DNA from: an uncultured Gammaproteobacteria bacterium
GTDB lineage: Bacteria; Patescibacteriota; Microgenomatia; Levybacterales; UBA12049
Assembly: GCA_964653195.1 (NCBI GenBank)
Contig: CAZZCX010000004.1
Location: forward strand, 173 to 64,172
DNA: 64,000 bases
Direction: 5' to 3'
The notes under the pieces are model-generated. The model did not search any database. It saw nothing but the letters and a program-made list of their open reading frames with translations, and was not told the origin of the DNA. Positions 32,674 to 63,686 of the stretch are shown here, one piece after another (the stretch's first letter is position 1; each line of letters begins with the position of its first letter). The translations under genes were made by a program, and so were the position numbers.

Positions 32674-34347
<1,674 letters not shown>

Positions 34348-41218: not shown

Positions 41219-43546
41219 ATGGGCCTGCCTTTTAAACTGCATCTCTTTAGAAAAACTCCTGAGGAAGGTTATTACCTTGCTTTAGTACTCCGTGATGAAA
41301 AAGTAGCTGCCTTAATATTCAAAGAACTGGAAGGAAAAATTACGATAGTAGCTAAAAGAGAAGAAACGCTTAAAGATACCCTTGAGAAAACTCCCCTTGA
41401 TGAACTTGTAACCATACTTGATAAAATAATCTCACATGTTGAGACTAGACTTCCGGCAGATATAGAGATAAAAGATACAGTCTTCGGTTTGAAAGATAGT
41501 TGGGTAAGTGAAAAAAAGATCAGTAAGGACTTCCTTACCAAGCTCAAACATATTTGTTCAGAATTAGATCTTAAGCCAATTGGTTTTATTGTGTTGCCTG
41601 AAGCTATAGCGCATCTTATAAAACAAGAAGAAGGCGCACCTGTGACCGCCCTAATTTCTGAAGTTGGTAAATTCGGAGTGACTGTAAGCTTATTTAAAGC
41701 AGGAAAACTAATCGAAACAAAGACAAAACCAATTGTCAGCACACCAATGCACGCTGTAGATGAAGTTTTAAAAGAATTTGAAAATGTGGAAATTCTCCCT
41801 TCCAGAATTATACTATTCCATGCAACTACTGAATTAGGCGATATTAATAAAGATGAATTAAGTCAGCAATTTATAGCACATAGCTGGAGTAAAAGTTTGC
41901 CTTTTTTACAAATTCCGCAAATATCGATACTGCCTCATGAGTTTGATGGTAAAGCAATTGTAGCGGGCGCAGCCACTCAGCTAGGCTTTGAATTCACCGG
42001 CTTACCTCAGGATTTAAACGAATCAGAAATAATTGATTTTGATCCAAAAAAAAGCAGAAGAATTAATAAACTTACAAATGCCGATCATGATCTAGAGATC
42101 GAAAAAAAATCTGATAAAACAACTTCTGAAAGTATAAACGCAAATGCTTTCGGATTTGTTCTAAATGAAGATATTACAACTATACCCAAACATGTAAAAG
42201 AGAATTCAATGCAAGCGATAAATAATTCAGAAACCGATTTTGAAGATAGAAACACACGAGTTGAGAAACGAAACGATTTCGCACTTAATGAGGTAATTGA
42301 GGAAAATAATGATGAAAATATATCTATAAAAAAATCAAAAGCAAATCCCCTTTTTCTTATAACTACTTTTTTTAGGAAACTTAAACCGCGGTCATCTACA
42401 ATAGCTAAAAAAAATTGGTTGTTTCTTATTCCACCAATTCTTATCCTGTTACTTATAGCATCCCTGCTCTTATATTTCTTTTCTTTAAAAGCTACTGTAA
42501 CACTTATTGTTTCTCCAAAAGATGTTGAAGAAACTCAACGGATAACCTTATCAACAAAATCACAAAATGATTTCACAAAAAATATAATTGCTGCAAAAGA
42601 GTTAACTGTAGCAATTGAAGGTAGCGCCGAAACAGAAACATCTGGCGAAAAAGAGGTAGGAGATAAAGCAAAAGGAACTATCACACTGTTTAACAGCGAT
42701 GAATCTAAAAAAACATTCAAGGAAGGTACAGAGATAGCATCAGAAAAAGGTTTAATTTTTGTTCTTGATAAAGAAACCAGTGTAGCTTCTGCTTCAGGCG
42801 ATATATTTACTGGTATAAAGTCTGGAACAGCACAAGCACCTGTGACAGCTTCAAAAATCGGTACAGAATATAACTTGCCGTCAAATTCAAAATTCAGTAT
42901 TCAGGGAACAGACGTGGTAGCTGCAAAAAACGAATCAGCATTTTCAGGAGGAACTAAGAAAAAAGTTACAGTTGTCACCCAAAAAGATGTAGATAAACTA
43001 GAAGAAGAGCTACCAAAGAGCTTAGAGGAAAAAGCGCGTACTGAACTAAAAAAGAAATTGAATGGTAATGAAGAACTACTTACAGGTTTTACAGATATTA
43101 CTCTATCTAAAACAACATTAGATAATGCAGTCGATAAAGAAGCAAAAACAGTAAAACTTACAGGTACTGTAAATTTTATATCTGTAGCCTATGATAAAGA
43201 TGATTTACTTCAATTTGCTGAAGAAAGTATAAAAGAAAGGTACACCAAGGAGGAACTTAATCGTGACAATATTGATACAAAACTAAGCGGTATCAAAGAT
43301 ACAAGTGAGACAGAACTGACTGCAGTCGCTGCCATTAACGCAGGCCTACTTCCTAAAATCGATATAGAAGATATGAAAACAAAACTTACTGGAAAATCTT
43401 TTACAGAAGTAAAAGAATTAGCAAGAGGTACATCGAGTCAAATAAAAGATGCTCAAATAACTCTTTCACCAAATCTTCCCTTTTTACCAGAAGTGCTTCC
43501 TAGAATTACAAAAAATATAGACATTATTGTCAATACAAGCCTTTAG
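41219..43546 (+). CDS. Large bitopic membrane protein of unknown function (~390-aa cytoplasmic N-domain, one TM, ~360-aa extracytoplasmic K/T/E-rich domain)
   Basis: Single strong TM helix 'WLFLIPPILILLLIASLLLYFFSL' near residue 400 and no recognisable catalytic motif. Followed by a sortase gene. Confidence 0.4.
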   Translation: MGLPFKLHLFRKTPEEGYYLALVLRDEKVAALIFKELEGKITIVAKREETLKDTLEKTPLDELVTILDKIISHVETRLPADIEIKDTVFGLKDSWVSEKKISKDFLTKLKHICSELDLKPIGFIVLPEAIAHLIKQEEGAPVTALISEVGKFGVTVSLFKAGKLIETKTKPIVSTPMHAVDEVLKEFENVEILPSRIILFHATTELGDINKDELSQQFIAHSWSKSLPFLQIPQISILPHEFDGKAIVAGAATQLGFEFTGLPQDLNESEIIDFDPKKSRRINKLTNADHDLEIEKKSDKTTSESINANAFGFVLNEDITTIPKHVKENSMQAINNSETDFEDRNTRVEKRNDFALNEVIEENNDENISIKKSKANPLFLITTFFRKLKPRSSTIAKKNWLFLIPPILILLLIASLLLYFFSLKATVTLIVSPKDVEETQRITLSTKSQNDFTKNIIAAKELTVAIEGSAETETSGEKEVGDKAKGTITLFNSDESKKTFKEGTEIASEKGLIFVLDKETSVASASGDIFTGIKSGTAQAPVTASKIGTEYNLPSNSKFSIQGTDVVAAKNESAFSGGTKKKVTVVTQKDVDKLEEELPKSLEEKARTELKKKLNGNEELLTGFTDITLSKTTLDNAVDKEAKTVKLTGTVNFISVAYDKDDLLQFAEESIKERYTKEELNRDNIDTKLSGIKDTSETELTAVAAINAGLLPKIDIEDMKTKLTGKSFTEVKELARGTSSQIKDAQITLSPNLPFLPEVLPRITKNIDIIVNTSL

Positions 43547-51069: not shown

Positions 51070-52797
51070 TTAGAACTCCTCACTTAAATTATCCAATCCG
51101 GAACCAGTCAACTGACTACCTTGAAGAACATTTTTATTTAAGATTTCATTTGCTGTCCCTTGTTGAAAATTGTTAGTGTTAACTATAGTATCTGCGTTGC
51201 TTCCTGTATAAGCTCCAGTACTCATTGGTGGAGCTTCAAATACTGGTGCTGCATCTTGATTTGCTGATGATGATACCGGTGTAACTTCTGGAGCTAATAC
51301 GCTTAATGGGTCAAAGCTGGTTACCGGTGCGACAGGTGATTGAGCAGCGCTTTGTCCATCTTGAGGTATCTGCTGGCCATAGTACAATGGCTGTGCTGCG
51401 GTTACCTGTGGATTATTATCTAGAGGTGCAGCATTCTGATTTATAGGATTTTTTGATGGATCACTTGTTGTGGTATCTGTTGCAGTTGGAGTCACAGCAC
51501 CTGTAGAAGCCGGATCAGAAGATACCACCTCGCTTTCACCTTTCGCAAACGCAAATGCATTTGTTTCTCCTTTATAATCAATTTTAATAGTGTCACCTGG
51601 CGTAAAATTTCTACCTATTATTTCAAGAGCAATCGGATTCTCTATGGAATTTTGAATTAAACGCCTGAGAGGCCTAGCTCCATACATTGGATCATATCCT
51701 TCTCGAGCAAGTTTTTCTAATGCTCTATCAGTAATAGACACAGTATATCCTTGCTCTTTTAACAACTTCGCTGTTTTTTCTATTCCCAGCTTTGCAATAC
51801 CGACCATGTCTTCTCGTCTTAATGGTTTGAATATAACAATATCGTCATACCTATTTAATAATTCAGGACGGAAGAATTTTCTTAATTCATTATTTACAAC
51901 ACTTGATAATTCTGCAAACTCCTTGGCATACTCTGAAGCTGTCTTTTGAGTTTTAGTGTCAGTATCCTTTAACTTTTCAGTAATTAACGCACTGCCGATA
52001 TTTGAGGTACATATTACAATCGTATTTTTAAAAGAAATAGTATTGCCTTTATTATCTGTTAGTCTCCCGTCTTCAAGAAGTTGTAAAAGGATATTAAAAA
52101 CATCAGGGTGCGCTTTCTCAACCTCATCAAGTAAGACTATAGAATATGGTTTAGCTCGAACAGCCTCTGTCAATTGCCCACCTTCTTCATAACCTACATA
52201 TCCGGGAGGAGCACCGATCAGCTTAGCAACTTCGTGCTTTTCCATATACTCGGACATATCAAGTCTGATCATCGCATCATCTCGACCAAATAATATCTCA
52301 GCCAGAGTTTTTGCAAGTTCGGTTTTTCCTGTACCTGATGGCCCAAGAAATATAAATGAGGCAATAGGGCGCTGACCGCTTGCAAGCCCTATCCTACCTC
52401 GTCTTACAGCTTCAGAAACTTTCAGCACTGCTTCCTCCTGGTCGATCAATCGCTTATGTATTCTTTTCTCAAGCACAAGCAATTTCGCGCTTTCGTCCTC
52501 TGTAAGTTTGGATATCGGAATACCTGTCCAGCTTGAAACTACATTTTCCACATCACGTTTCGTGACAGCATTTCCCTCCAACACTTCTTCTGCTTTATGC
52601 AAATCCTTGTCATCATTATTTAACTGTTGAGGATCAATATTAACAGCTTTATTTTGCTCATTTGGTCCAGTTTGCGCTGTAGGTGGAGTAGCATTTTGCC
52701 CACTTTGAGTTACATTATCCACCGGTGCCTGAATATTATCCGGTAAGGGAGAACCTTGAGCTACAGTATTATTATTTAATGGATTTGTATTGTTCAT
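51070..52797 (-). CDS. ClpB-like AAA+ chaperone, C-terminal half (low-complexity head, D2 ATPase, ~150-aa S/T/P/Q-rich tail)
   Basis: 'VSSWTGIP', Walker A 'FLGPSGTGKTELAKTLAEILFG', sensor 'GARPLRRLIQ'. The ClpB-like 'TSNIGSALITEKL' region lacks an IGF/VGF ClpP-docking loop. Its start overlaps the stop of the upstream ORF (ATGA). Confidence 0.75.
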   Translation of the reverse strand: MNNTNPLNNNTVAQGSPLPDNIQAPVDNVTQSGQNATPPTAQTGPNEQNKAVNIDPQQLNNDDKDLHKAEEVLEGNAVTKRDVENVVSSWTGIPISKLTEDESAKLLVLEKRIHKRLIDQEEAVLKVSEAVRRGRIGLASGQRPIASFIFLGPSGTGKTELAKTLAEILFGRDDAMIRLDMSEYMEKHEVAKLIGAPPGYVGYEEGGQLTEAVRAKPYSIVLLDEVEKAHPDVFNILLQLLEDGRLTDNKGNTISFKNTIVICTSNIGSALITEKLKDTDTKTQKTASEYAKEFAELSSVVNNELRKFFRPELLNRYDDIVIFKPLRREDMVGIAKLGIEKTAKLLKEQGYTVSITDRALEKLAREGYDPMYGARPLRRLIQNSIENPIALEIIGRNFTPGDTIKIDYKGETNAFAFAKGESEVVSSDPASTGAVTPTATDTTTSDPSKNPINQNAAPLDNNPQVTAAQPLYYGQQIPQDGQSAAQSPVAPVTSFDPLSVLAPEVTPVSSSANQDAAPVFEAPPMSTGAYTGSNADTIVNTNNFQQGTANEILNKNVLQGSQLTGSGLDNLSEEF

Positions 52798-54392
52798 GGT
52801 GTTGCGACTGAACCTGCTAGATTTGAATTGCCTTCGGGTAATGCACCGTTTGCAATTGAATTCTGCGACATATCTTGCGTATTTGTTTCTATATTTCCAG
52901 TTGTTTCATCGATTTTATCATTTACCTTACTATCTTCGTTTGTTTTTATTACTTGTACCAATTCTTTCACATCTGATTTCCCTCCGTCAATTCTGGGAAG
53001 GAAAGTTTCAGATCGTCCTAACTTCACCCATGCTGAAGCTTCATCAAGCAAATCTACTGCTTTATCTGGCAAATAACGTTCGCCAATATATTTTTTCGAT
53101 AATTTAACTGCTGCCTCAATTGTTTTATCACTAATCGTAACGTTATGAAACCTTTCATACTTTGGACGCAGTACCTTAAGCATCTCGATTGCTGCTTCTT
53201 CGCTCGGCTCTTCAGCTACTACAGGCTGAAAGCGTCTTTCAAGTGCTTTATCTTTTTCAAAATTCTTCCTATATTCACTTGTAGTAGTAGCTCCTATTAT
53301 TTGCAGTTGGCCACGTGCCAAATGAGGTTTTATAATATTTGAAGCATTCATTGAATCTCCATCTCCGCCCGCGCCCATTAAGATATGTATCTCATCAATA
53401 AAAAGTATAATTTGGCCAGCTGACGCCATCGATTCCTGAATTACACTTCTAAGTCTTTCTTCAAATTCTCCCCTATGTGATGCGCCTGCAACGATAGAAG
53501 ATAGATCTAGTTGAATAATTCGTTTATTCGCAAGCTCTTTCGGTGATTTACCAGTAACTATCTCTTCCGCCAACCCTTCAATAATAGCTGTTTTACCTAC
53601 ACCAGCCTCACCAATAATTATCGGATTATTTTTAGTTCTTCTTAATAAAATATGTACTAGTCTATCGATTTCTTTATCTCTACCTGCAATCGGATCGAGC
53701 TTCCCTTCACGCGCCTGTTCTGTCAAATCAATTCCGAATCTATCTAATACTGACTTTTTTCCGTATGAAAAACCATGAGCTTTAGATAACTTAGTTTCAA
53801 CTTCTTCCTTGTTTATACCCTGTTGCTTTAATTGTCCAGCTGTAGTGAGAGTATCATTGAAAAGCGAAAGCAATATGTCTTCAGGGGTGACAAAAGAAGA
53901 TTCGCGCGTCTTAGCATCTCTATAAGACTGTTCGAAAACCTGTTTTGATTTATCGCTTAATGTAGGTTGCCCTGTAAATGTACCCACCACTTCTTTTGTC
54001 TGTATTTCTTTAGTTAATTTTGCTGGATCTACTGAAAACTCTTCAAGTAATTTAAATAAGTCTGCATCATATAAAAGTCCAATTAGTAGCTGATCTGGCT
54101 CAATTAACTGTTGACGTATTCTTTTAGTTTCTTCCTGTGCATGCTGTAATACTTGAGTAGAACGCTGATCAAGATGTGATAATGCTGATAAGTTCTGTTT
54201 TAAATTTGGATTAATACGTGATACCGCTGGACTGGTAGTTTTTGCATCTCCCTGTGAGGCAACTCCCTGAGGAGTAACTGCAGCTTGTTGATTAACATTA
54301 TTTATAGACTGACTACTTACTGGTACACTCATCTGTGAACTCGCTTCAGGTTGCAACGGTTGTTTTTTTTGATTGAAAAGATTACCAAACAT
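52794..54392 (-). CDS. ClpB-like AAA+ chaperone, N-terminal half (Q/S-rich head, Clp_N domain, D1 ATPase, no M-domain)
   Basis: Clp_N repeat 'LLIGLLYDADL...ILLSLF', Walker A 'IIIGEAGVGKTAIIEGLAEEI', 'LPDKAVDLLDEA'. Ends in a low-complexity N/Q/T linker where a coiled-coil M-domain would normally sit. Confidence 0.75.
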   Translation of the reverse strand: MFGNLFNQKKQPLQPEASSQMSVPVSSQSINNVNQQAAVTPQGVASQGDAKTTSPAVSRINPNLKQNLSALSHLDQRSTQVLQHAQEETKRIRQQLIEPDQLLIGLLYDADLFKLLEEFSVDPAKLTKEIQTKEVVGTFTGQPTLSDKSKQVFEQSYRDAKTRESSFVTPEDILLSLFNDTLTTAGQLKQQGINKEEVETKLSKAHGFSYGKKSVLDRFGIDLTEQAREGKLDPIAGRDKEIDRLVHILLRRTKNNPIIIGEAGVGKTAIIEGLAEEIVTGKSPKELANKRIIQLDLSSIVAGASHRGEFEERLRSVIQESMASAGQIILFIDEIHILMGAGGDGDSMNASNIIKPHLARGQLQIIGATTTSEYRKNFEKDKALERRFQPVVAEEPSEEAAIEMLKVLRPKYERFHNVTISDKTIEAAVKLSKKYIGERYLPDKAVDLLDEASAWVKLGRSETFLPRIDGGKSDVKELVQVIKTNEDSKVNDKIDETTGNIETNTQDMSQNSIANGALPEGNSNLAGSVATP

Positions 54393-54501: not shown

Positions 54502-57500
54502 TCAATTATTCGATTGTGTATTTTCATCATTTTCTATACTTTGTGCTAACTTGCTCTGATTCTCGGGAGCTTTCTCGACAGCTCGATCAACAAGAACTTT
54601 CTCACCTTCTTCTGATTGAGATTCTAGTAAAGAATTAGCTGCATGCAGTTTAGCATCTAGATATGACGTAATTTCATCTAAGCTAAATCCACCCAGCAAG
54701 ACAAAAGGTAATAAGAGAGATACTTGACGCAGACCTTCTTGCACTTTCAAATTATCATGTGAAGACAAAAGCATAAGAGTGGAACGAATTGTATCACTCT
54801 CTTTATTCAGCCAAGATCTTTTGTCCATCGTTTCAACTGGAGAATTTGATTTTCTATAATAATCTTCCCACATACCTCTAACTGCCTCATAATCTTGGAT
54901 ATTTACTGTCTGTAAAGGATTTGACGCTGGCAATTCGATACTCTGCACCCCTACTGTATTTATATTCTCATCTTTAGGTGCTAACTCCCAAATTTTTACA
55001 GCCAGTATATTACCTGCTTCCGCTTCATTTTTTACTTCTTCCTTAAGATCTGCTATCTGTTCTAAAGGAGTATCAGCAGTAATCATAAGAATCCGGTCTG
55101 CTAAAATATTTTGTTTCTTTACTTCATTTGCTAACATCTCAGAAACCGCTTTAATGCTTTCAATATCTTTTACTGCATATAAATCTGGATGTGATAATTC
55201 CATAAGATATCTATGAAAAGCGTCCATTGCACTTTCATGATTATCATTTTTCTGATTAACTGCATTACTTGCAGAAAGAATTAATCCAGCATGGACATCA
55301 CCCTTTCCGCTTAGTTCTGAAAGATTATCTTTTATCGAATTTATTCTCGTTTTTTCATTTACATCAGTTACGACTTCAGGATTTGCGATTCTTGCCAAAG
55401 TCTCCTTAACTTTTATAACTTCTTCTTGAGCTATTGGATCATTCGATAGGCTAGACATTTCAAATCTAACAACATCTTTGATTGTCGGAATTGGAAGGTT
55501 TGTGAGAGTAAGTAGTTCTGTGTTTACTTTCACTGAAGGCGATGAGCTAAGTGGACTTTCCGCACTGGTATTATCATCTGATTCATCATCAATTGTCGCA
55601 GATTGAGTCATGCTAGTTTTTGTAGTGGTATGTGTCTCAACTGTAACAAGAGTATCCTCCTCAGTCCCTATTTCATCAATCACTGATTTTCCAGCTTCTT
55701 GCTTGGCTTTCAAATAAGATACTATCTCATCCTGACTGAATCCCCCAAGAAGTAAGAAAGGTAACACATTACCTACTTCTTCCATTCCTTGCTGAATTTT
55801 TTCATTGTCCCCTGACGTCAGAAGAGAAAGTATATTATCAATATCTCTTACATCATCACTGATCCATTCTTTTCTACTACTTAAACCTTCCGGGACTTCC
55901 ATATCTTTATAATTCTCTTGCCACATCTTTCGTACCGCTTCATAATCCTCAAGGCTTACTGTTTGGATCCTATTAGTTGAAGGCGTGACTATACCATCCG
56001 TAATGCCTCCTTCTTCTGAAGCAAAAAGTCCTAGCACATCATCTGCTAATGGCTCACCTTTAGTTTTTGCATCTAAGAGCTGAGTTTTTACTAACTCCAT
56101 CTCTTTTGTATTTACTGGCGCTAAAGAGTTTGCATCTTCCTGAGAGGTGCCTTGCATTTTAGTTAACATAGAGGCAGCAAACTGGTTTCCCTGACTTTGC
56201 GCCAAAATAAGTTTGTCTTTTACTTTTTCATACTTTTCCTTTACTGCTGTACTTGTAATTGAGGTAGGATTGGCAAGCTGCTGCATTACTTTTTGAGTAG
56301 TTGATGCATCAATTCTTCCTATTGCAGTTGTAAGAATAGTTGATGCTTCGTGATTGCCTTGGAGAGTTGCTTCGATCAGCTTTTCTTTTAGATCATGTAT
56401 TTCGTTTGAAGTTGAAGTTTCTTTCGTCGAGAGAATTGAAGTTGCCAATGTGTTTCCCTTCTCACTTTCTTTTACCAACGAATTATGAAGCTCAGAAATC
56501 CGTTCTCTATCGCTACCCATTGCTGATGCTGGATTTGCGATTTCTTTCAATACATTCTTTAACACCGACTCATGTTCTTTGGTAAATGAAGTAGCGACAA
56601 GAGAGGTAGATACATTATTTCCAGTGATACTTTCCCTGGTCAATTGATTCTTAATATTTTGAAGTTCACGTACTGTTGTATTTTCTTTTGCTGCAAGAAT
56701 AGTTGTCGCTAAAGTATTGCCCTTCTCGCTCTCTTTTACTAAACTATCTCGGAGCATGGTCATTCTTTCACGATCAACACCTGCAGTAACTGATTGTGGA
56801 TTTGAAATATTTGTTAATGTCTTTTTAAGATTTTTGATTTGATTTATATTTTGATTTGTTACATTAGAAATATTACTTGCAATATTAACCGCTGACAGTA
56901 TAGAACTAGCTACAGTATTTCCAGAAGTACTTTCTTTAATTAGGCGATCTTTAAGTTGAATGAATTTTTCACGTTCAATTTCATTTTGGATCGTCGAAGG
57001 ATTAGCTATTTGCGCTAAAGTCTGATAAGTTTTTGAAATATTGCTAGAATCGCGATTTGATATCAAATCTTTTTCGTAAGTTGCAATATCTCGTATCGTA
57101 GGAAGTGAGATATTGGTAGCTGTAAGTAATTGATTATGAACACTAGCAACTGTAGATGCTTGAGGTCTGGTAATTGGAATTTCTCTCGCAACGCCTATAG
57201 GCATTGCTTTAGGTAATTGCATTGCATCTCCTATAGGTCCTTCCTTAATAACTGGTATATTTTTTGCATCTGAATACTTGGCAAAAGGCAGCTGTTTAGC
57301 TAACCCTGTACCGGCAGACGGAGGAAGAGGCACGGGTGCAGGTGGAGCTTTGTTTAAAAGCAAATAGCTAGTGTTTATTAACTTCTGCATTGCAGGGCTT
57401 TCTTCAAATGAAAAGTTATTCAGATAATCAAGAAATATCTGAAGTAAGATAAATGGCAATAATATTACGACCCAAAGCATTATAAGAGCCACAACATAAA

Positions 57501-58527
57501 GCGCGAATGTATCTGGAGTATTAAGATTATTATCTGCAGTTACTATTTGCCCAGGACCTCCAAGTAAAACATTTGTCGCAGTAGGATAAACGAATGACGT
57601 ACCGACATTTTTGAAATCAAATATCAAAGGCAGCCTGGGTGACTTCCAAATAGATACTAGGCCTGAAAGAAATATCGTAAAAAGAGGCGCATAGAGTAGC
57701 CAACGGAAAAATTCACCGATCCAAATCTTTGCCGTATTGCGTACGGGATAATAAAGTAAAAGTATCGGAAAAACTGGTGAGAGAACTATGAAAAACCAAA
57801 GTATAATTTTTCTTATAATCAAAACACCGGTCATTGCGTAATAAGTTACTGCGGTAAGCCGAGCAAGTAAAAGATTTACAAAAACGGATTCATCAAAAAA
57901 TGGATGAACTTTTCTAAGACCTCTAAAATATTCATAATCCCAACCTACATATAATAAATCCTGGGCGCTAATAAGTCTTCTTGGTGTTCCAGGCTGAGTT
58001 AAAAAGAATCCCTGTATGACATCAACTGTAGTGTAGATGATCTGAATTAAAGAATAAGAAAGAGTCACTAAAAGAACTACAGCAATAAACCTAGGTAGAA
58101 ATCGCTTCAAAGTAAGACTTTTTCCTCTGGTAGCCATGAGAACAAAAGCCGTTATAAGTACAATTAGCGCAAAGAAAGCATAAACGATATTGCGAATAGT
58201 GATCCAAAAACCTATTAGAGGATTCTCGTTATTGCTGCATATTCTGGTATTGGTTGAATTTGTCGTATCAGTACTCGGTGGACGAATGATATTTCCACTT
58301 GCATCATACTTAACATAACAAGACCATTCATAATTCTGGAGTGTCCAATTGAGAAATTGAACGGCTCTGGCTGCTGTTTTACCGACGAAATTAACTTCAG
58401 GATCCTCTGAATATGGTACTGACGGTGAAGGAAACGGTATATCATCTGCATATACAACATTTACACTATTTACGAAAAAGGCTAAACCTAATATTAAGTA
58501 AAAAATTAAGGGCAGAATTTTTTTCAT
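54502..58527 (-). CDS. Giant (1341-aa) secreted/polytopic membrane protein with long repetitive C-terminal domain; VirB6/TrbL-like topology (hypothesis)
   Basis: Signal peptide (…NSVNVVYA), ~90-aa Cys-containing ectodomain, about 6 TM helices with a large loop (residues ~110-370). At least seven ~45-aa repeats 'ANPxS..RE...L...L.KES..GN..A..IL' and a ~110-aa domain duplicated twice ('...DYEAVR.MW...LLLGGFS.DEI.SYL.AK'). Confidence 0.5.
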   Translation of the reverse strand: MKKILPLIFYLILGLAFFVNSVNVVYADDIPFPSPSVPYSEDPEVNFVGKTAARAVQFLNWTLQNYEWSCYVKYDASGNIIRPPSTDTTNSTNTRICSNNENPLIGFWITIRNIVYAFFALIVLITAFVLMATRGKSLTLKRFLPRFIAVVLLVTLSYSLIQIIYTTVDVIQGFFLTQPGTPRRLISAQDLLYVGWDYEYFRGLRKVHPFFDESVFVNLLLARLTAVTYYAMTGVLIIRKIILWFFIVLSPVFPILLLYYPVRNTAKIWIGEFFRWLLYAPLFTIFLSGLVSIWKSPRLPLIFDFKNVGTSFVYPTATNVLLGGPGQIVTADNNLNTPDTFALYVVALIMLWVVILLPFILLQIFLDYLNNFSFEESPAMQKLINTSYLLLNKAPPAPVPLPPSAGTGLAKQLPFAKYSDAKNIPVIKEGPIGDAMQLPKAMPIGVAREIPITRPQASTVASVHNQLLTATNISLPTIRDIATYEKDLISNRDSSNISKTYQTLAQIANPSTIQNEIEREKFIQLKDRLIKESTSGNTVASSILSAVNIASNISNVTNQNINQIKNLKKTLTNISNPQSVTAGVDRERMTMLRDSLVKESEKGNTLATTILAAKENTTVRELQNIKNQLTRESITGNNVSTSLVATSFTKEHESVLKNVLKEIANPASAMGSDRERISELHNSLVKESEKGNTLATSILSTKETSTSNEIHDLKEKLIEATLQGNHEASTILTTAIGRIDASTTQKVMQQLANPTSITSTAVKEKYEKVKDKLILAQSQGNQFAASMLTKMQGTSQEDANSLAPVNTKEMELVKTQLLDAKTKGEPLADDVLGLFASEEGGITDGIVTPSTNRIQTVSLEDYEAVRKMWQENYKDMEVPEGLSSRKEWISDDVRDIDNILSLLTSGDNEKIQQGMEEVGNVLPFLLLGGFSQDEIVSYLKAKQEAGKSVIDEIGTEEDTLVTVETHTTTKTSMTQSATIDDESDDNTSAESPLSSSPSVKVNTELLTLTNLPIPTIKDVVRFEMSSLSNDPIAQEEVIKVKETLARIANPEVVTDVNEKTRINSIKDNLSELSGKGDVHAGLILSASNAVNQKNDNHESAMDAFHRYLMELSHPDLYAVKDIESIKAVSEMLANEVKKQNILADRILMITADTPLEQIADLKEEVKNEAEAGNILAVKIWELAPKDENINTVGVQSIELPASNPLQTVNIQDYEAVRGMWEDYYRKSNSPVETMDKRSWLNKESDTIRSTLMLLSSHDNLKVQEGLRQVSLLLPFVLLGGFSLDEITSYLDAKLHAANSLLESQSEEGEKVLVDRAVEKAPENQSKLAQSIENDENTQSNN

Positions 58528-58538
58528 GGTAATTATGT

Positions 58539-58922
58539 TTATCCGAAACCAGGTATATGCAATATATCAACAAGTATTACTTCGACGAATAAGTATCCGA
58601 ATATGGCAAGAAGCAATCCTGCTAATGCATAGCCAATAATATTTTTCCCGTCATTAAGTATCTTCGGATTACCATGAGAGACCAATATCTGATAGCTTCC
58701 AAAAATAATCATTAATACTGCAAAGCCTCCTATTATGCCAAGACCATATTTATAGTACTGACTGACAAAGACATTTACATCGGTACGCACACACCCGACG
58801 TCAGTTTCTATACAGCCAGGATCCAGCGCAGGTGAAGGAGTAATCTGAGCATGGACAGGTGTTAAAAAAGGAAAAATTAATAAAAAGCAAATAAAAAAAA
58901 CAACTCCAAAAAGTCTTACCAT
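58539..58922 (-). CDS. Small secreted two-TM protein, VirB2/TrbC-pilin-like topology (hypothesis)
   Basis: 127 aa: signal peptide with AxA-type site 'PVHA-QI', Cys pair 'CIETDVGC', then two hydrophobic helices (GLGIIGGFAVLMIIFGSYQILV; IGYALAGLLLAIFGYLFVEVILV) separated by a short polar loop. Confidence 0.4.
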   Translation of the reverse strand: MVRLFGVVFFICFLLIFPFLTPVHAQITPSPALDPGCIETDVGCVRTDVNVFVSQYYKYGLGIIGGFAVLMIIFGSYQILVSHGNPKILNDGKNIIGYALAGLLLAIFGYLFVEVILVDILHIPGFG

Positions 58923-58992
58923 ACATTCATAGTATCAGAGCATTTTTACAAATACAACAACTCGACAGATTAAATGAAAATTAAGTAATGTC

Positions 58993-60036
58993 TCAAATTT
59001 TATTTAGAATATTTTGGGATTCAAAAGATAAAATCTTCTTTTTAAAGTAATGTGTATTTTTATACTTTTGCTTTATATTACTATAAAGTGTGAGAGTAAA
59101 TGACAAATGATGATCGATCAATATTGAATTATATTTTTTCAACACAAACTCGCGATAATCAAAAGGATGAAATGCTACAAATGAACTTGTTACGTATTCA
59201 TTGGTTCGATTTTTATTTATTGACCATAATTGGATAGCTTCTGCTACTTTTTCAAAAATGATAATCGGTAAAAGAAAACTTCCTAAAATCCTAAATATCC
59301 AAACCAAAAATTGAGAACTTTTGTAAATTTCTTTATTTTTTAGTAATTTGGGCAAAACATTAGGCATAAATTTTTTTATCCATTCATTTGATAAGTAAAA
59401 TTTGTATGCAGTATTATCCCTGGAATACAATGTTTTTAACTGCGCAATCTCCTGAGAAGTATAGATATCCCTTCTATTTTTTGCAAAAGTAAGCTGAGTT
59501 TCATCAATTAACATATTTACGCAAATTTTATTTCGCCTATTATTTGAATTTCTGGATCTACGCATACCTAATAGTTGTAAAATTAATAATATTAATAATC
59601 GAGTACTCCATAAACTATTTTTCTTGGTAATAATAAATAAATCAATATCGTCATTCTCTCCTGCATTTCTCATTGAGAGACTGCCACTTATACCTACATA
59701 AAGAATAGTCGGGATTATTGATAGTAATTTTGTTATATTTTTAGCAATGAAAACTTTTGTATTGCTAAAAGATTCCCTTTTTTTTCGATCTTTAATTCCA
59801 TGCCTGTAACCCGTAAAAAAATAATATCCATCAACTGATTCTATATCCTCTGGTATAAAATTTAGCATTTGGTAAAAATCACTTTTTTTTATATTCACAT
59901 GAGTCTTGAGGTAATACCATAATTCATTACGTTTTAGGGGATAATTGAAGATGTGAGCGTATAGAAGTGTTTGTCTTAAGGCATCAAGACAATGATCCTT
60001 AGAGTATTGCTGACTGTTATCTTTTTTCATCATCAA
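58993..60036 (-). CDS. Nucleotidyltransferase-fold protein (Pol-beta superfamily; LicD/fukutin-like or MNT-like)
   Basis: 'GISGSLSMRNAGENDDIDLFII' fits the G[SG]-x9-13-DxD NTase motif and resembles the LicD 'GTLLGAVRH..DDDID' region; 347 aa, basic and Lys-rich. Confidence 0.4.
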   Translation of the reverse strand: MMMKKDNSQQYSKDHCLDALRQTLLYAHIFNYPLKRNELWYYLKTHVNIKKSDFYQMLNFIPEDIESVDGYYFFTGYRHGIKDRKKRESFSNTKVFIAKNITKLLSIIPTILYVGISGSLSMRNAGENDDIDLFIITKKNSLWSTRLLILLILQLLGMRRSRNSNNRRNKICVNMLIDETQLTFAKNRRDIYTSQEIAQLKTLYSRDNTAYKFYLSNEWIKKFMPNVLPKLLKNKEIYKSSQFLVWIFRILGSFLLPIIIFEKVAEAIQLWSINKNRTNEYVTSSFVAFHPFDYREFVLKKYNSILIDHHLSFTLTLYSNIKQKYKNTHYFKKKILSFESQNILNKI

Positions 60037-60037
60037 A

Positions 60038-61660
60038 TCATTGAAGGCTTTGTGCTTGAACCTGACTTACTCCTTGTAAAAAAGTTTTGGTAGCAGTATC
60101 TACAGAGCCACCTGCATATATTTCCCTTACGGCATTGCCTAAATAATCATTTAGAAGACTATTGTAAAGTGTATCATTTGTATCGCTTGAAAAAATTGTC
60201 GATGTTGCATTATTGGCCTGTTCTACAAACGGATAAAGAATTGGGTCATCAGCAAGCATTGATGCCATATCACGTCTTGGATATGGCATTCCAAATAATC
60301 TACTCTTACTTGCTTCAGTAAAAATTTTCTGCATTGTTTCTTTTTCAGATAAAAATTTTATGAATAATAAAGCTTCTTTCTGATGCTTGGTTTGGGTAGA
60401 TAAGCCATTTGCCCAATAACTTGCAATCGTAATTTTAGTTTGCGAACCACTCCCTGTAGGCAAATAAGGTACAGGGTGTACAGAAAAATTTAAATCTTTA
60501 CTAATAGCTTGAATTGCAAAAATATCCCAGGAATAGCCAAAATACATAGCAGCTTTACCCTGCGCGAACATGTCCCGTGATGAACCTAAGGAGTTACTCC
60601 AAACACCTTCCTCCCCTTTTGCAAATGAAGTGTAGTGCAGTAATGATTCTTTCACAAATTCAGGTTGTTTCTCAAGTGAAGACAAATCAATACCATTAGT
60701 CGCCATTATTAGAGAGATAATATCAGGTGCATGAGTAACATTATCAAATGTGCCCAATGCGACTCCCGATGTTTGAATAATACCATTCTTTTCTTTTACG
60801 GTTAATTGTCTGACAATCGTATTAAACTCTTCCCAGGTTTTCGGAAACTTAACACCTGCTGCATCAAAAATATCTTTGTTTATAAATAAAGCTAAGACAT
60901 CGACTCCTTGTGGCAAACCATAAATCGCGCCATTTTTAGTCATATCGCGCAAAATTACAGGATAATAGATTTTTTGAAATTCATCTGGCTTAATTACTTC
61001 TTGAGGTAATGGTAATAAAACATTATCGGATGAACTGGTAAGTGTAGGTACCCATGAATTATGAAAACTGAAAATATCAGGTGCTTCTGTATTGTTCTTA
61101 ATTCTTGTAATTAATCTTTCCTTATACTTTTGTGGATCTTGTTTTATATAATTTATTTTTATTCCTGGATACTTCTTTTGAAATTCACCAACTGTCGACT
61201 GCATGGTTTTACTTTCTTCCCAAAGTCCCCAATATGTCAATGTCGCATTTGTAATACCCCTATTCCCCCCTCCACCGAACAAACGAGATAAAATACCAAT
61301 AAATATGATAAGTAACAAAACAATAAATACTATTGCAGCTGCTAATATTTTTTTATTTTTAAGATAAGAGTTAATTCCAGAAGGAGGCATAGAACCTGTC
61401 AAAGGTTCTACTTCAGAGAAAGTATTCATGTTTTCTACCGGTGCGGATAGGGGCTGTACTGGAGGCGATAAAGGCTCCGGTTTATTTAGTGTTTCTGTGC
61501 TAACAGTGGAAGTTTGAGAAATCTGCTGATTCTGAACGTCTGTATTTACAACACCAGATGGACCATATAAATCCTGGGCTGTAATTCTAGATGAAGCGCC
61601 TTCTGAAGAAGGATTATTTTGCCCTTGATTCTTATTATTAAAAATTGTTTGATCATCCAT
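60038..61660 (-). CDS. Family-1 extracellular solute-binding protein (sugar ABC-type SBP), TM-anchored with ~100-aa disordered N-terminal tail
   Basis: Low-complexity Q/N/S/P-rich N-terminus, TM 'ILAAAIVFIVLLLIIFIGILS', then an SBP_bac_1-like domain ('TLTYWGLWEE...', 'GLPQGVDVLALFINKDIF'). No permease or ATPase gene is adjacent. Confidence 0.65.
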   Translation of the reverse strand: MDDQTIFNNKNQGQNNPSSEGASSRITAQDLYGPSGVVNTDVQNQQISQTSTVSTETLNKPEPLSPPVQPLSAPVENMNTFSEVEPLTGSMPPSGINSYLKNKKILAAAIVFIVLLLIIFIGILSRLFGGGGNRGITNATLTYWGLWEESKTMQSTVGEFQKKYPGIKINYIKQDPQKYKERLITRIKNNTEAPDIFSFHNSWVPTLTSSSDNVLLPLPQEVIKPDEFQKIYYPVILRDMTKNGAIYGLPQGVDVLALFINKDIFDAAGVKFPKTWEEFNTIVRQLTVKEKNGIIQTSGVALGTFDNVTHAPDIISLIMATNGIDLSSLEKQPEFVKESLLHYTSFAKGEEGVWSNSLGSSRDMFAQGKAAMYFGYSWDIFAIQAISKDLNFSVHPVPYLPTGSGSQTKITIASYWANGLSTQTKHQKEALLFIKFLSEKETMQKIFTEASKSRLFGMPYPRRDMASMLADDPILYPFVEQANNATSTIFSSDTNDTLYNSLLNDYLGNAVREIYAGGSVDTATKTFLQGVSQVQAQSLQ

Positions 61661-61760
61661 AAATAATTTGAAGTATTTTTAACGGAATAATAATATGTTT
61701 GAATAGAACAGACATACTTGGTTTTATAGTATAATATTCATTGTATTTCAAGCAAATTTT

Positions 61761-63197
61761 ATGAATTTTCGACTTTTATCTATAATACCTCAAGATAAAA
61801 AAATATTACTAACTCGACTAATCAAAGGTTACTTCTGGTTTATAAGTGGTGCAATCCTTGGTTTGTTCTTCTTTATAAGCTTTACATATATTATATATAA
61901 AAATACTTATAAAAATGTCGTTTTCCCAGGAGTTTATATAGATAATGTAGATTTCAGCGGTAAAACAAAAGAGGATGTACGGGATTATTTTGATAATAAA
62001 AATCAACAAATCCAAAAAACAACATTCTATTTGAAGCATGAAGAATTGATAGCTACAATATCTGCCAAGGATTTAGACTTTGGATATAACGAGGAACTCC
62101 TTGCACAGCAGGCATTCAGCATAGGACGTGCAGCAAACTCCATATCAAATTTCAGTATAATCATACAATCATACCTTTATGGTATTCATCTACCAGCTTC
62201 TTATCAATATGATGAGGAATATCTCGTTAAGCAAGTTTCTGAGATATCAGAAAATATTTATAAAGTTCCTATTGACGCGAGATTTACATTCCAAGATTCA
62301 AAAGTAGTTGAATTTCAAACATCATCAGATGGACAGGAATTAGACATTACAGAGTTAAAAAAACGCATTTCGGCAAAAACGCTAGCGGTTGTAAAATCCA
62401 CCAAACCGCTGAAAATTCCCATCTTAATTCCCATTAAAGTTTTATATCCAGAAACAACAACAGATGAAGCAAATGATTTCGGCATTAGAGAACTTGTAGC
62501 CGTAGGATCATCTCAATTCGTGGGTTCAATCCCGAACAGAATGTATAATATCGCTCTGGCAGCGACACGACTAAACGGTATTCTTATAAAACCTGATGAA
62601 GTATTTTCGTTTAATAAAGCATTGGGAGATATATCAACTTTTACCGGATATAAACAGGCTTATGTTATTCAAAACGGTAGAACTGTACTAGGAGATGGCG
62701 GTGGAGTTTGTCAAGTATCAACGACATTTTTTCGGGCTGTCTTAAATGCAGGCTTACCAATTGTTGAAAGAAATCCTCACGCCTATAGAGTCAGCTATTA
62801 CGAGCAAGATAGTGGACCTGGATTCGATGCTGCTATATATGTACCTTCAGTAGATTTTAAATTCAAAAATGATACAAACAACTATTTACTGATTAAAACA
62901 GACGTAAATCCTGATTCTGGTTATCTGACATTTGAGCTATACGGTACGAAAGACAGTCGACAAGTAACTATATCAAAGCCGGTTATTACTTCAATAACAT
63001 CCTCCCCTGAACCTCTTTATATAGATGACCCTACACTGCCTAAAGGTGAAACAAAACAGGTGGATTTCGCTGTAGCAGGTGCCAACGTATACTTCACAAG
63101 AAGTGTAGAAAAAGATGGAAAGATCCTAATAAATGACACTTTTGCTTCAAAATATCGTCCATGGCAAGCAGTATATATGCGTGGTACTAAAGAATAA
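61761..63197 (+). CDS. VanW-family protein (N-terminal TM, PG-binding-like and VanW domains)
   Basis: 'GGGVCQVSTTFFRAVLNAGLPIVERNPHAY' is the VanW-domain signature; N-terminal TM helix. Confidence 0.75.
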   Translation: MNFRLLSIIPQDKKILLTRLIKGYFWFISGAILGLFFFISFTYIIYKNTYKNVVFPGVYIDNVDFSGKTKEDVRDYFDNKNQQIQKTTFYLKHEELIATISAKDLDFGYNEELLAQQAFSIGRAANSISNFSIIIQSYLYGIHLPASYQYDEEYLVKQVSEISENIYKVPIDARFTFQDSKVVEFQTSSDGQELDITELKKRISAKTLAVVKSTKPLKIPILIPIKVLYPETTTDEANDFGIRELVAVGSSQFVGSIPNRMYNIALAATRLNGILIKPDEVFSFNKALGDISTFTGYKQAYVIQNGRTVLGDGGGVCQVSTTFFRAVLNAGLPIVERNPHAYRVSYYEQDSGPGFDAAIYVPSVDFKFKNDTNNYLLIKTDVNPDSGYLTFELYGTKDSRQVTISKPVITSITSSPEPLYIDDPTLPKGETKQVDFAVAGANVYFTRSVEKDGKILINDTFASKYRPWQAVYMRGTKE

Positions 63198-63200
63198 CTA

Positions 63201-63686
63201 ATGGAAAAAATCATAGATATCCAAAAAGCTATTGAAAAAGCACTAAGCTTGAAGACGGATGGAAAAACTATTGTTCTTGCAGGAGGTTGCTTCGATATCC
63301 TCCATATAGGTCATATTGAATTTATAAAAGAAGCAAAAAAAACAGCTAATTTTCTATTTCTGCTTCTGGAAAGTGATGAGAGAATTCGGGGACTTAAAGG
63401 TAAAAATCGCCCAATAAACTCCCAAATCGACCGAGCCCGTGTTCTGGAAAGTATCGTTTATACCGATTTTATTGTCCTTTTACCAAATTTCAAAAGCAAT
63501 ATAGAATATGATGAAATGATTTCCGGCTTGAAACCTGATATAATCGCCGCAACGAAGACTGATCCAGGACGAGTCCATAAAGAGCGCCAAGCGAATAAAT
63601 TAGGAATACGGGTAGTCGACGTGATAGAAAAATTTGAAAACAGCTCAACATCACGAATCGCAAAGCTTTTGGAAAAAGAAATATAG
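63201..63686 (+). CDS. Cytidylyltransferase-family nucleotidyltransferase (HIGH motif; HldE domain II / TagD / RibL-like)
   Basis: 'LAGGCFDILHIGHIEFIKEAKK' (HxGH) and 'RPINSQIDRARVLESI', 161 aa. Confidence 0.65.
   Translation: MEKIIDIQKAIEKALSLKTDGKTIVLAGGCFDILHIGHIEFIKEAKKTANFLFLLLESDERIRGLKGKNRPINSQIDRARVLESIVYTDFIVLLPNFKSNIEYDEMISGLKPDIIAATKTDPGRVHKERQANKLGIRVVDVIEKFENSSTSRIAKLLEKEI

Follow-up and report, generated by a model that had tools for sequence, protein, structure and literature searches.

The 64-kb stretch of DNA analysed here, which we call the window throughout, carries four closely packed genes on its minus strand. In the direction of transcription they encode a membrane-anchored solute-binding protein (SBP), a nucleotidyltransferase (NTase, with a TTG start codon), a small protein resembling the VirB2 pilins of type IV secretion systems (T4SSs) and a very long protein whose N-terminal part resembles VirB6. 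The last two genes, referred to below as the pair, are the main subject of this work. The four open reading frames (ORFs) are separated by 1, 70 and 11 nt, and their positions and tight packing are exactly as the initial annotation had placed them (Table 1). The survey of the window took in every ORF of 100 aa or longer; the 64 kb have a GC content of about 35% and a housekeeping gene content (SecA, GroEL, LepA, AlaRS, SerRS, FtsK, MurJ, glycogen and sugar-nucleotide genes). No phage genes were found in this core chromosomal setting. The closest relatives are metagenome-assembled genomes (MAGs) of Candidatus Levybacteria, and the window is therefore a Patescibacteria (Microgenomatia) chromosome. 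Gene order was compared over 80 loci, one genome per species, together with annotated contigs; the loci are named L001 etc.

Table 1. Features of the four-gene locus and of the Hsp100 gene downstream (window coordinates).
Feature	Coordinates	Strand	Basis
Extended VirB6-like protein, whole gene, 1341 aa	54502-58527	-	Family homology, fold, unbroken ORF in six or more independent assemblies
Signal peptide (aa 1-27) and N-terminal ectodomain (aa 28-113) of the VirB6-like protein	58189-58527	-	Hydropathy, family charge, AlphaFold2 (AF2) helix 43-64
Polytopic VirB6/TrbL-like domain (aa 114-372)	57412-58188	-	
C-terminal module 1 (aa 463-985): head motif, ~7 helical repeat units, copy 1 of a ~110-aa domain (C-dom, aa 849-960)	55573-57141	-	Self-BLASTP, hidden Markov model (HMM) domain counts
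C-terminal module 2 (aa 1001-1341): head motif, ~3 helical repeat units, C-dom copy 2 (aa 1198-1310)	54505-55527	-	AF2
VirB2-like "T4SS_pilin" gene, 127 aa: leader peptide, N-terminal Cys-pair loop, two hydrophobic helices and basic loop	58539-58922	-	PF18895, position upstream of the VirB6-like gene
Hsp100 (ClpB-like) ATPase without middle domain, split in two overlapping ORFs (52794-54392, 51070-52797)	51070-54392	-	Pfam, NCBIfam, synteny
Pol-beta-superfamily NTase, 347 aa	58993-60036	-	Polbeta E=1.4e-4; neighbour, not conserved partner of the pair
Transmembrane-anchored orphan SBP, 540 aa	60038-61660	-	SBP_bac_1 E=1.8e-34, transmembrane helix 105-123

The VirB6-like protein and the pilin

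The 1341-aa ORF recurs intact, identical in sequence and within the same four-gene order, in at least six independent assemblies. Because of this recurrence, and because the nonsynonymous substitution rate (dN) is much below the synonymous rate (dS), we take it to be a real gene and not an assembly artefact. Its N-terminal part has the build of a polytopic membrane protein. Hydropathy gave a signal-like helix at aa 4-22 and hydrophobic helices at 114-132, 147-165, ~213-236, 241-259, 276-294 and 343-361, and the helices of an AF2 model lie at 103-135, 140-176, 209-258, 260-295 and 338-371; by both, there are at least five hydrophobic helices with a large loop after helix 2, as is expected of VirB6/TrbL proteins. 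The signal peptide, the Cys-containing ectodomain and the approximately six transmembrane (TM) helices that had been proposed were thus confirmed by hydropathy. The ectodomain is net negatively charged throughout the family, and its two cysteines, C70 and C97, belong to an insert that is peculiar to the window protein and absent from the family consensus.

At least 291 database homologues of the N-terminal 440 aa were found at about 50% identity, and those with names are Levybacteria or Patescibacteria. The Pfam profile TrbL (PF04610) aligned with the window protein over positions 2-181 of its 215, at 11.4 bits (E=0.26) and a cut-off of 25.9. The same profile was matched at E<=0.1 by 18 of 39 family members, the best at 1.8e-6, reached 2.1e-4 in a 2044-aa relative (L062) and is present in the precomputed Pfam annotation of several database homologues. 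Since so many relatives match PF04610 while the window protein stays below the cut-off, the latter appears to be a divergent homologue missed by the curated model. The family alignment was used to model aa 1-440 with AF2 (pLDDT 74.9, pTM 0.69), and the model was compared with the PDB by Foldseek; the best seven matches were all TrwI/VirB6 of plasmid R388, with probabilities of 0.93-0.99, and a VirB6 fold is thereby predicted. With hhalign, the family profile aligned with the sequence of R388 TrwI (plasmid record NC_028464) over 164 columns at P=0.004, in the same region as the Foldseek alignment, and a search of the VirB6-like profile against PDB sequences gave nothing. We conclude that the N-terminal domain is a divergent VirB6 homologue that does not reach the curated Pfam threshold. 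The VirB6/TrbL-like character suggested in the initial annotation therefore stands clearly at the level of family and fold, and the profile match of the window protein itself is weakly positive.

The rest of the protein, aa 373-1341, is hydrophilic. Since VirB6-like helices combined with a large hydrophilic central or C-proximal domain define the "extended VirB6" proteins (PMC12857230), the window protein belongs with them. The C-terminal ~900 aa consist of two homologous modules (self-BLASTP 2e-17 and 1e-29, 28-31% identity). Each begins with a head, "LLTxTNxxxPTIxD", continues with helical units of the form "..L..L..E...GN..A..IL" and ends in the C-dom, of which the two copies are 38% identical; a ~110-aa domain present twice had been noted correctly. 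Reading of the sequence gave six long units starting with [AS][NH]P and four shorter ones with the same core, in agreement with the "at least seven" units reported before. Compared with the L088 orthologue, the dN/dS ratio was 0.015 in the TM domain, 0.06 in the module-1 repeats, 0.03 in C-dom 1 and 0.13 in the module-2 repeats, dS being near saturation here and saturated in most orthologue comparisons.

Family members mostly have 700-770 aa and a single module. HMM counts among 85 loci gave one C-dom in 61, two in 18 (as in the window) and three in 3. A HMMER scan of 1.84 billion cluster representatives found the C-dom in 330 proteins (305 at 1e-10), with up to five copies and up to 3266 aa; 111 of the 147 inspected had the VirB6-like domain and the remainder look like gene fragments. 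Duplication during assembly was considered as a cause of the 1341-aa length and rejected, because the modules share only the low identity given above, two or three modules occur in 21 of the 85 loci and the ORF is identical across independent assemblies. Structure prediction of the repeat region, which had been proposed at the outset, gave a confident all-alpha model of module 2 (AF2, pLDDT 85). Foldseek found no PDB match to this model with a probability above 0.2, and Pfam and NCBIfam assigned no family to the modules; matches to DUF7441 and KaiA_N had E>0.01 and were taken as chance. The extension is a family-specific, predicted all-alpha module that is iterated one to five times, and this kind of extension is new within the extended VirB6 class.

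The modules could face either outward or the cytoplasm, and the evidence points both ways. The charges of two loops (133-146, +3.6; 259-276, +2.5) favour a cytoplasmic position, as does the classical VirB6 topology, which has five TM helices. In the cryo-electron microscopy structure of R388, only helices alpha1 and alpha2 are in the membrane and the rest forms a dome on its outer side, which favours modules outside (PMC9259494). Amino-acid composition, judged with a tiny training set of window proteins, was exported-like for module 1 (+0.05) and borderline for module 2 (-0.025). Because the modules may lie on either side of the membrane, the surface or host-interaction role that had been suggested for the repeats is not supported.

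The pilin of the window has a cleavable-looking leader (..VHA/QIT), a Cys pair (C37 and C44) and two hydrophobic helices (63-81 and 100-118) joined by the basic loop SHGNPKILNDGKN. All elements described in the initial annotation are present, and the protein has the properties expected of a pilin of this kind: small size, two hydrophobic helices, a short basic loop and an N-terminus predicted to be exported. PF18895 (T4SS_pilin) matched the window protein weakly (20.6 bits, E=4.8e-4, cut-off 26.6) and 39 of its 42 orthologues from related loci at E<=0.01, the best at 2.5e-8; it is also precomputed for 16 of 47 database homologues. The TrbC/VirB2 profile, PF04956, against which a check had been advised, was matched by one of the 42 family members, at 0.0032, and the pilin profile retrieved from PDB sequences only TM-helix noise (G-protein-coupled receptors, cytochrome oxidase). 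The PF18895 matches support, at the level of the family, a place of the 127-aa protein in the VirB2-like "T4SS_pilin" family of CPR (candidate phyla radiation) bacteria.

Most pilin orthologues are leaderless (about 65 of 79 loci, e.g. L001 9694-9996): an upstream stop codon bounds the ORF, and the start lies a few residues before the Cys-pair loop, near the mature N-terminus of the window pilin. A cleavable signal peptide was found in the window pilin and in about ten other orthologues. The existence of both leaderless and leader-bearing orthologues implies that the same pilin is inserted by two different routes.

Gene neighbourhood in related loci

In 78 of 82 loci, the pilin gene lies directly upstream of the VirB6-like gene and in the same orientation, usually with a gap of less than 15 nt. 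Toward the other side, 66 of the 68 loci with enough flanking sequence have an Hsp100 (ClpB-like) gene no more than 2 kb downstream of the VirB6-like gene (median gap 51 nt). The gene dnaK is found upstream of the pair in 61 of 66 loci and hrcA in 60 of 66, and the usual order in Levybacteria, all on one strand, is hrcA-grpE-dnaK-(dnaJ)-pilin-VirB6-like-Hsp100. The lineage of the window has lost the linkage to dnaK and kept pilin, VirB6-like gene and Hsp100 together. Two more divergent members, L090 and L091, as well as L057 and L061, have no chaperone context. In L057 and L061 (10001-13381), two-module VirB6-like genes are located by alaS and S8 proteases, with no adjacent pilin or Hsp100 gene. 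Because these four loci are not beside Hsp100 or dnaK, the chaperone linkage could be an inherited gene order in one order-level clade; more generally, the linkage may reflect co-regulation, functional coupling or no more than an inherited order.

Of 40 loci, 31 have genes of secreted proteases (S8, M4, M28) and 28 a second Hsp100 paralogue in the 9 kb downstream of the VirB6-like gene. Examples of such downstream proteostasis genes are L001 15022-16740, L005 15766-17751 and L057 13410-16756. Together, the proteases and the second Hsp100 form a "proteostasis island" around the pair.

The operator recognised in CIRCE (controlling inverted repeat of chaperone expression) elements was also searched. 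A relaxed search found the CIRCE-like pattern TTAGCA-N15-TGCTAA upstream of hrcA, 50 of its 61 matches being within 400 nt of that gene. The Levybacterial variant, TTAGCA[GC]TC-N9-TA.TGCTAA, occurs in about 50 loci (e.g. L003 5260-5286), and its 3' arm is unlike the canonical GAGTGCTAA. No exact match to the canonical consensus was found in the related loci, and none of these loci has a CIRCE-like operator just before the pilin or the Hsp100 gene. Within the 64 kb of the window, the canonical consensus had no match with three or fewer mismatches and the relaxed pattern none with one or fewer, so that no CIRCE was detected even upstream of groEL (32674-34338).

The adjacent Hsp100 is not a canonical ClpB and is without the coiled-coil middle domain on which DnaK docks. 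In 56 of 60 loci (e.g. L001 12226-14997, L003 13742-16279), the linker between its two ATPase domains D1 and D2, measured between LPDKAIDLLDEA and WTGIP, is only about 41 aa long. The ClpB model TIGR03346 scored 889 (cut-off 1232) and found no match for its positions ~400-525, and none of the NCBIfam cut-offs for ClpB, ClpA, ClpV, ClpK and ClpG was reached. In the window, the two Hsp100 ORFs overlap by 4 nt and the break falls exactly at the D1-D2 linker, flanked by low-complexity tails; since the close relatives L006 and L007 have the same split, it is not a sequencing error. At the extreme N-terminus, 71 of 72 loci have M[FL]GNLF, followed by a variable Q/P/S-rich disordered linker and then Clp_N (window 54375-54392 for the motif). 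This motif looks like a putative docking peptide. We consider a functional coupling of the Hsp100 or the other chaperones to the pair unlikely.

The two upstream genes do not share this history. The SBP has a single TM helix following a low-complexity N-terminal tail of about 100 aa, and the surveyed ORFs of the window include no ABC permease or ATPase, nor does either adjoin the SBP orthologues in L086-L088; it is on these grounds an orphan, and its description as a TM-anchored SBP with no cognate transporter genes nearby was confirmed. The NTase matched Polbeta below the cut-off (22.4 bits against 26.9). Its motif, GSLSMRNAGENDDIDLF, fits the pattern hG[GS]x9-13Dh[DE]h of the Pol-beta superfamily, and many of its 141 homologues are flagged PF18765 or PF01909. 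Of the double description "Pol-beta/LicD-like", the Pol-beta half was upheld by motif and homologues and the LicD half was not, as PF04991 was not detected. The window, L007 (78% identity) and L088 are the only loci in which SBP and NTase adjoin the pair, and neither was found within 10 kb of it in about 78 other loci. A block of its own, with VanW pointing one way and SBP followed by NTase the other, is kept in L086, L087 and L088; in L086 and L087, SBP-NTase is followed by a cytidylyltransferase-like gene or greA and by no pilin. Including a cytidylyltransferase gene oriented like VanW, the conserved block spans 58993-63686 in the window and recurs in the same three loci, its SBP and NTase genes overlapping or 1 nt apart, and it probably represents an independent cell-envelope module.

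From the restriction of the SBP-NTase-pilin junction to the window lineage, a recent lineage-specific rearrangement follows. This rearrangement joined two conserved pairs, and also detached the pilin pair from dnaK while keeping Hsp100. The conserved unit is therefore one of two genes, pilin and VirB6-like, not the four-gene operon of the initial annotation. Around these genes, no terminator was predicted on the minus strand from 50.5 to 62 kb, a promoter scan was uninformative (53 sites against 43 expected) and an Rfam scan of 50-64 kb gave no match.

Elsewhere in the window, the plus-strand ORF at 41219-43546 encodes a 775-aa protein with a weak Baseplate_J-like match (E=5.9e-5); it adjoins alaS and then a sortase gene. 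A 778-aa protein is encoded at the equivalent spot by alaS in L057 (5494-7830), beside the VirB6-like gene, and is likened to the 775-aa protein by position alone. Many third-party annotation MAG records with Levybacteria-type loci are titled "uncultured Gammaproteobacteria bacterium", and others Sulfotelmatobacter, Lysobacterales or Limnocylindrales. These titles look like placeholders or products of mis-binning and are unfit for taxonomy.

Interpretation of the pair

We consider it fairly probable that the pair encodes a highly diverged VirB2-like pilin and an extended VirB6-like platform of Patescibacterial T4SS-derived machinery, in a Levybacteria-like (Microgenomatia) genome. That the VirB6-like gene is under constraint in all its parts, by comparison with L088, also speaks for this reading. 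By analogy with R388, the VirB6-like domain would oligomerise in the cytoplasmic membrane, bind pilin subunits already inserted in the same membrane and lift them into a filament or conduit. The C-terminal modules may be a lineage-specific extension of this platform, serving either as an outward stalk through the monoderm wall or as a scaffold in the cytoplasm on which an ATPase docks. Energy would come from a VirB4/TrsD ATPase encoded outside the window, and SBP and NTase would be a separate envelope-related pair placed upstream by the rearrangement. Of this picture, homology, domain architecture and synteny were demonstrated, and oligomerisation, pilus assembly, the partner ATPase and the place of the modules are inferred.

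Several observations weigh against a T4SS platform with a pilin. Both proteins of the window stay below the curated Pfam cut-offs, and the pilin family profile has no likeness to the canonical TrwL/VirB2 of R388 (hhalign, E=0.31). A VirB6 gene is expected together with virB4 and other T4SS genes, and this is not the case here: no VirB4, TrsD, VirB3, VirB8 or type IV coupling protein (T4CP) was found among the surveyed ORFs of the 64-kb window, or within 10 kb on either side of the pair in the loci with Pfam-annotated gene lists. The invariant neighbours of the pair are chaperone genes and not secretion genes. Table S1 of a phylum-wide T4SS survey records VirB4 in 20 of the 44 Levybacteria MAGs considered and not in the other 24 (PMC12102498); three pair-bearing genomes could be matched with entries of that table, of which L010 and L017 are VirB4-negative and L084 is positive. 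The negative scores could be due to incompleteness of the MAGs, or to independence of the pair from VirB4.

The latter possibility leads to a different reading, in which the pair is a VirB4-independent machine that was co-opted into a heat-shock and proteostasis island, works with the Hsp100 lacking the middle domain and with DnaK/DnaJ and is controlled by HrcA. Possible roles of such a machine are protein export or extraction, or recycling of the pilin. The one-strand order from hrcA to Hsp100, the frequency of Hsp100 and dnaK beside the pair and the persistence of pilin, VirB6-like gene and Hsp100 in the window lineage despite the loss of dnaK are consistent with it. So are the CIRCE-like operators located at hrcA and not just before the pilin or Hsp100 gene, the common absence of the middle domain in an Hsp100 that reaches no NCBIfam equivalog cut-off, the M[FL]GNLF motif on its disordered linker, the proteases and second Hsp100 downstream and the VirB4-negative MAGs recorded in the survey table. 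However, the four loci mentioned above are not beside Hsp100 or dnaK, no CIRCE-like site occurs in the whole window and the absence of VirB4 is explicable by MAG incompleteness. In addition, no VirB6 machine driven by an Hsp100 is known to us. We therefore regard this reading as unlikely; if it were true, it would be a new way to power a T4SS-derived platform. A stricter form is somewhat less likely still. It holds the pair to be a self-standing, VirB4-independent envelope machine of Levybacteria under the HrcA heat-shock regulon, with the Hsp100 as motor, perhaps docking through MFGNLF to the C-doms, and it would amount to a chaperone-powered secretion or filament system made from T4SS parts.

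Gene order also bears on the proposal that SBP, NTase, pilin and VirB6-like protein form one functional envelope operon, for example for the sensing or import of a sugar-type ligand coupled to modification or assembly of a surface filament. The tight spacing on one strand with no predicted terminator agrees with this proposal, as does the recurrence of the order in L007, L088 and six or more assemblies from the same population. Yet the two upstream genes are missing around the pair in all but these loci, and in L086 and L087 the SBP-NTase genes continue into other neighbours. The proposal is largely refuted by synteny, and we give it very little weight. Even less credible is the view that the giant protein is unrelated to T4SSs, being a polytopic protein with a helical-repeat tail (tape-measure-like, S-layer-anchoring or an adhesin), and the small protein an unrelated two-TM peptide. 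The scores under the Pfam cut-offs, the PDB sequence searches that gave nothing specific and the C-terminal modules with no known relatives would fit this view. Against it stand the TrbL and T4SS_pilin matches, which are consistent across both families, the near-invariant pairing of the genes, which mirrors the VirB2-VirB6 partnership, and the core housekeeping setting with no phage genes. No refuting family, such as tape-measure or S-layer proteins, was found for either protein.

Comparison with known type IV secretion systems

A T4SS platform with its pilin, the reading we prefer, can be compared most directly with TrwI/VirB6 and TrwL/VirB2 of the conjugative T4SS of R388 (PDB 7O3V, 8RT9), in which a VirB6 pentamer uses helix alpha1 to recruit membrane-inserted VirB2 and forms the base of the growing pilus (PMC9259494). 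The window protein is only 13% identical to TrwI and differs from it in having a cleavable signal peptide, an N-terminal ectodomain and about 970 extra C-terminal residues. Unlike R388, the host is a monoderm with no VirB5/7/9/10, the pair is not encoded with virB3, virB4 and virB8, and its pilin has no detectable likeness to TrwL.

With respect to its extension, the protein resembles the extended VirB6 proteins, which have at least five hydrophobic helices and one or more large hydrophilic C-proximal domains, with an accessory or unexplained function of the extension. Examples are TraG of the F plasmid and the RvhB6 paralogues of Rickettsiales. The class is recognised and poorly understood (PMC12857230). 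In contrast to it, the extension described here is a tandem of one to five modules with no Pfam or PDB relatives, found in about 330 cluster representatives, the comparison with TraG and RvhB6 being made by description alone. Within the extended VirB6 class, the family is thus unusually modular, and no relatives are known for its C-terminal domain.

For the unlikely Hsp100-powered machine alone, the nearest parallel is ClpV/TssH of type VI secretion, an Hsp100/ClpB-derived ATPase devoted to a secretion apparatus. The adjacent Hsp100 did match the NCBIfam ClpV model, with a score under the cut-off. Unlike ClpV/TssH, the Hsp100 considered here has no type VI secretion genes around it and no middle domain, and it is linked to the pair by synteny alone.

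The initial annotation did not recognise the locus as a described system. However, T4SSs of Patescibacteria with VirB2-like pilins and VirB6 homologues have been reported between 2023 and 2025: they were described in 2023 in Southlakia epibionticum, where they are essential and, unusually, have VirB2-like pilins (PMC10633639), surveyed across the phylum in 2025 (PMC12102498) and reviewed (PMC12857230). The Patescibacterial T4SS is the first one shown to be essential for its own carrier bacterium, and Patescibacteria depend on host cells (PMC10633639, PMC12857230). The core identity of the pair would not surprise a specialist in T4SSs or CPR bacteria. Like the system of S. epibionticum (SEML1_0006-0019), the pair is found in a monoderm CPR host, combines PF18895 pilins with a VirB6 homologue and has no relaxase context. 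Unlike that system, where a pilin array and virB6 lie beside virB4, trsD and prgI, the pair is located far from any ATPase gene and among chaperone genes.

According to the survey, VirB6 homologues are rarely found in Microgenomatia, "suggesting extreme sequence divergence", and two Levybacteria genomes in its Table S3 are listed with two VirB2, TrsD, VirB4 and T4CP (and VirB1 in one), with no VirB6 entry (PMC12102498). The VirB6-like family is a strong candidate for the VirB6 missing from this inventory, with an extra pilin of its own and away from virB4. The dnaK/Hsp100 setting and the VirB4-negative MAGs raise the question of whether such a VirB2/VirB6 pair needs VirB4. If the pair is a T4SS component, the annotation of T4SSs in CPR bacteria can be improved, and the locus provides a concrete candidate for the VirB6 that the survey failed to find in most Microgenomatia (PMC12102498).

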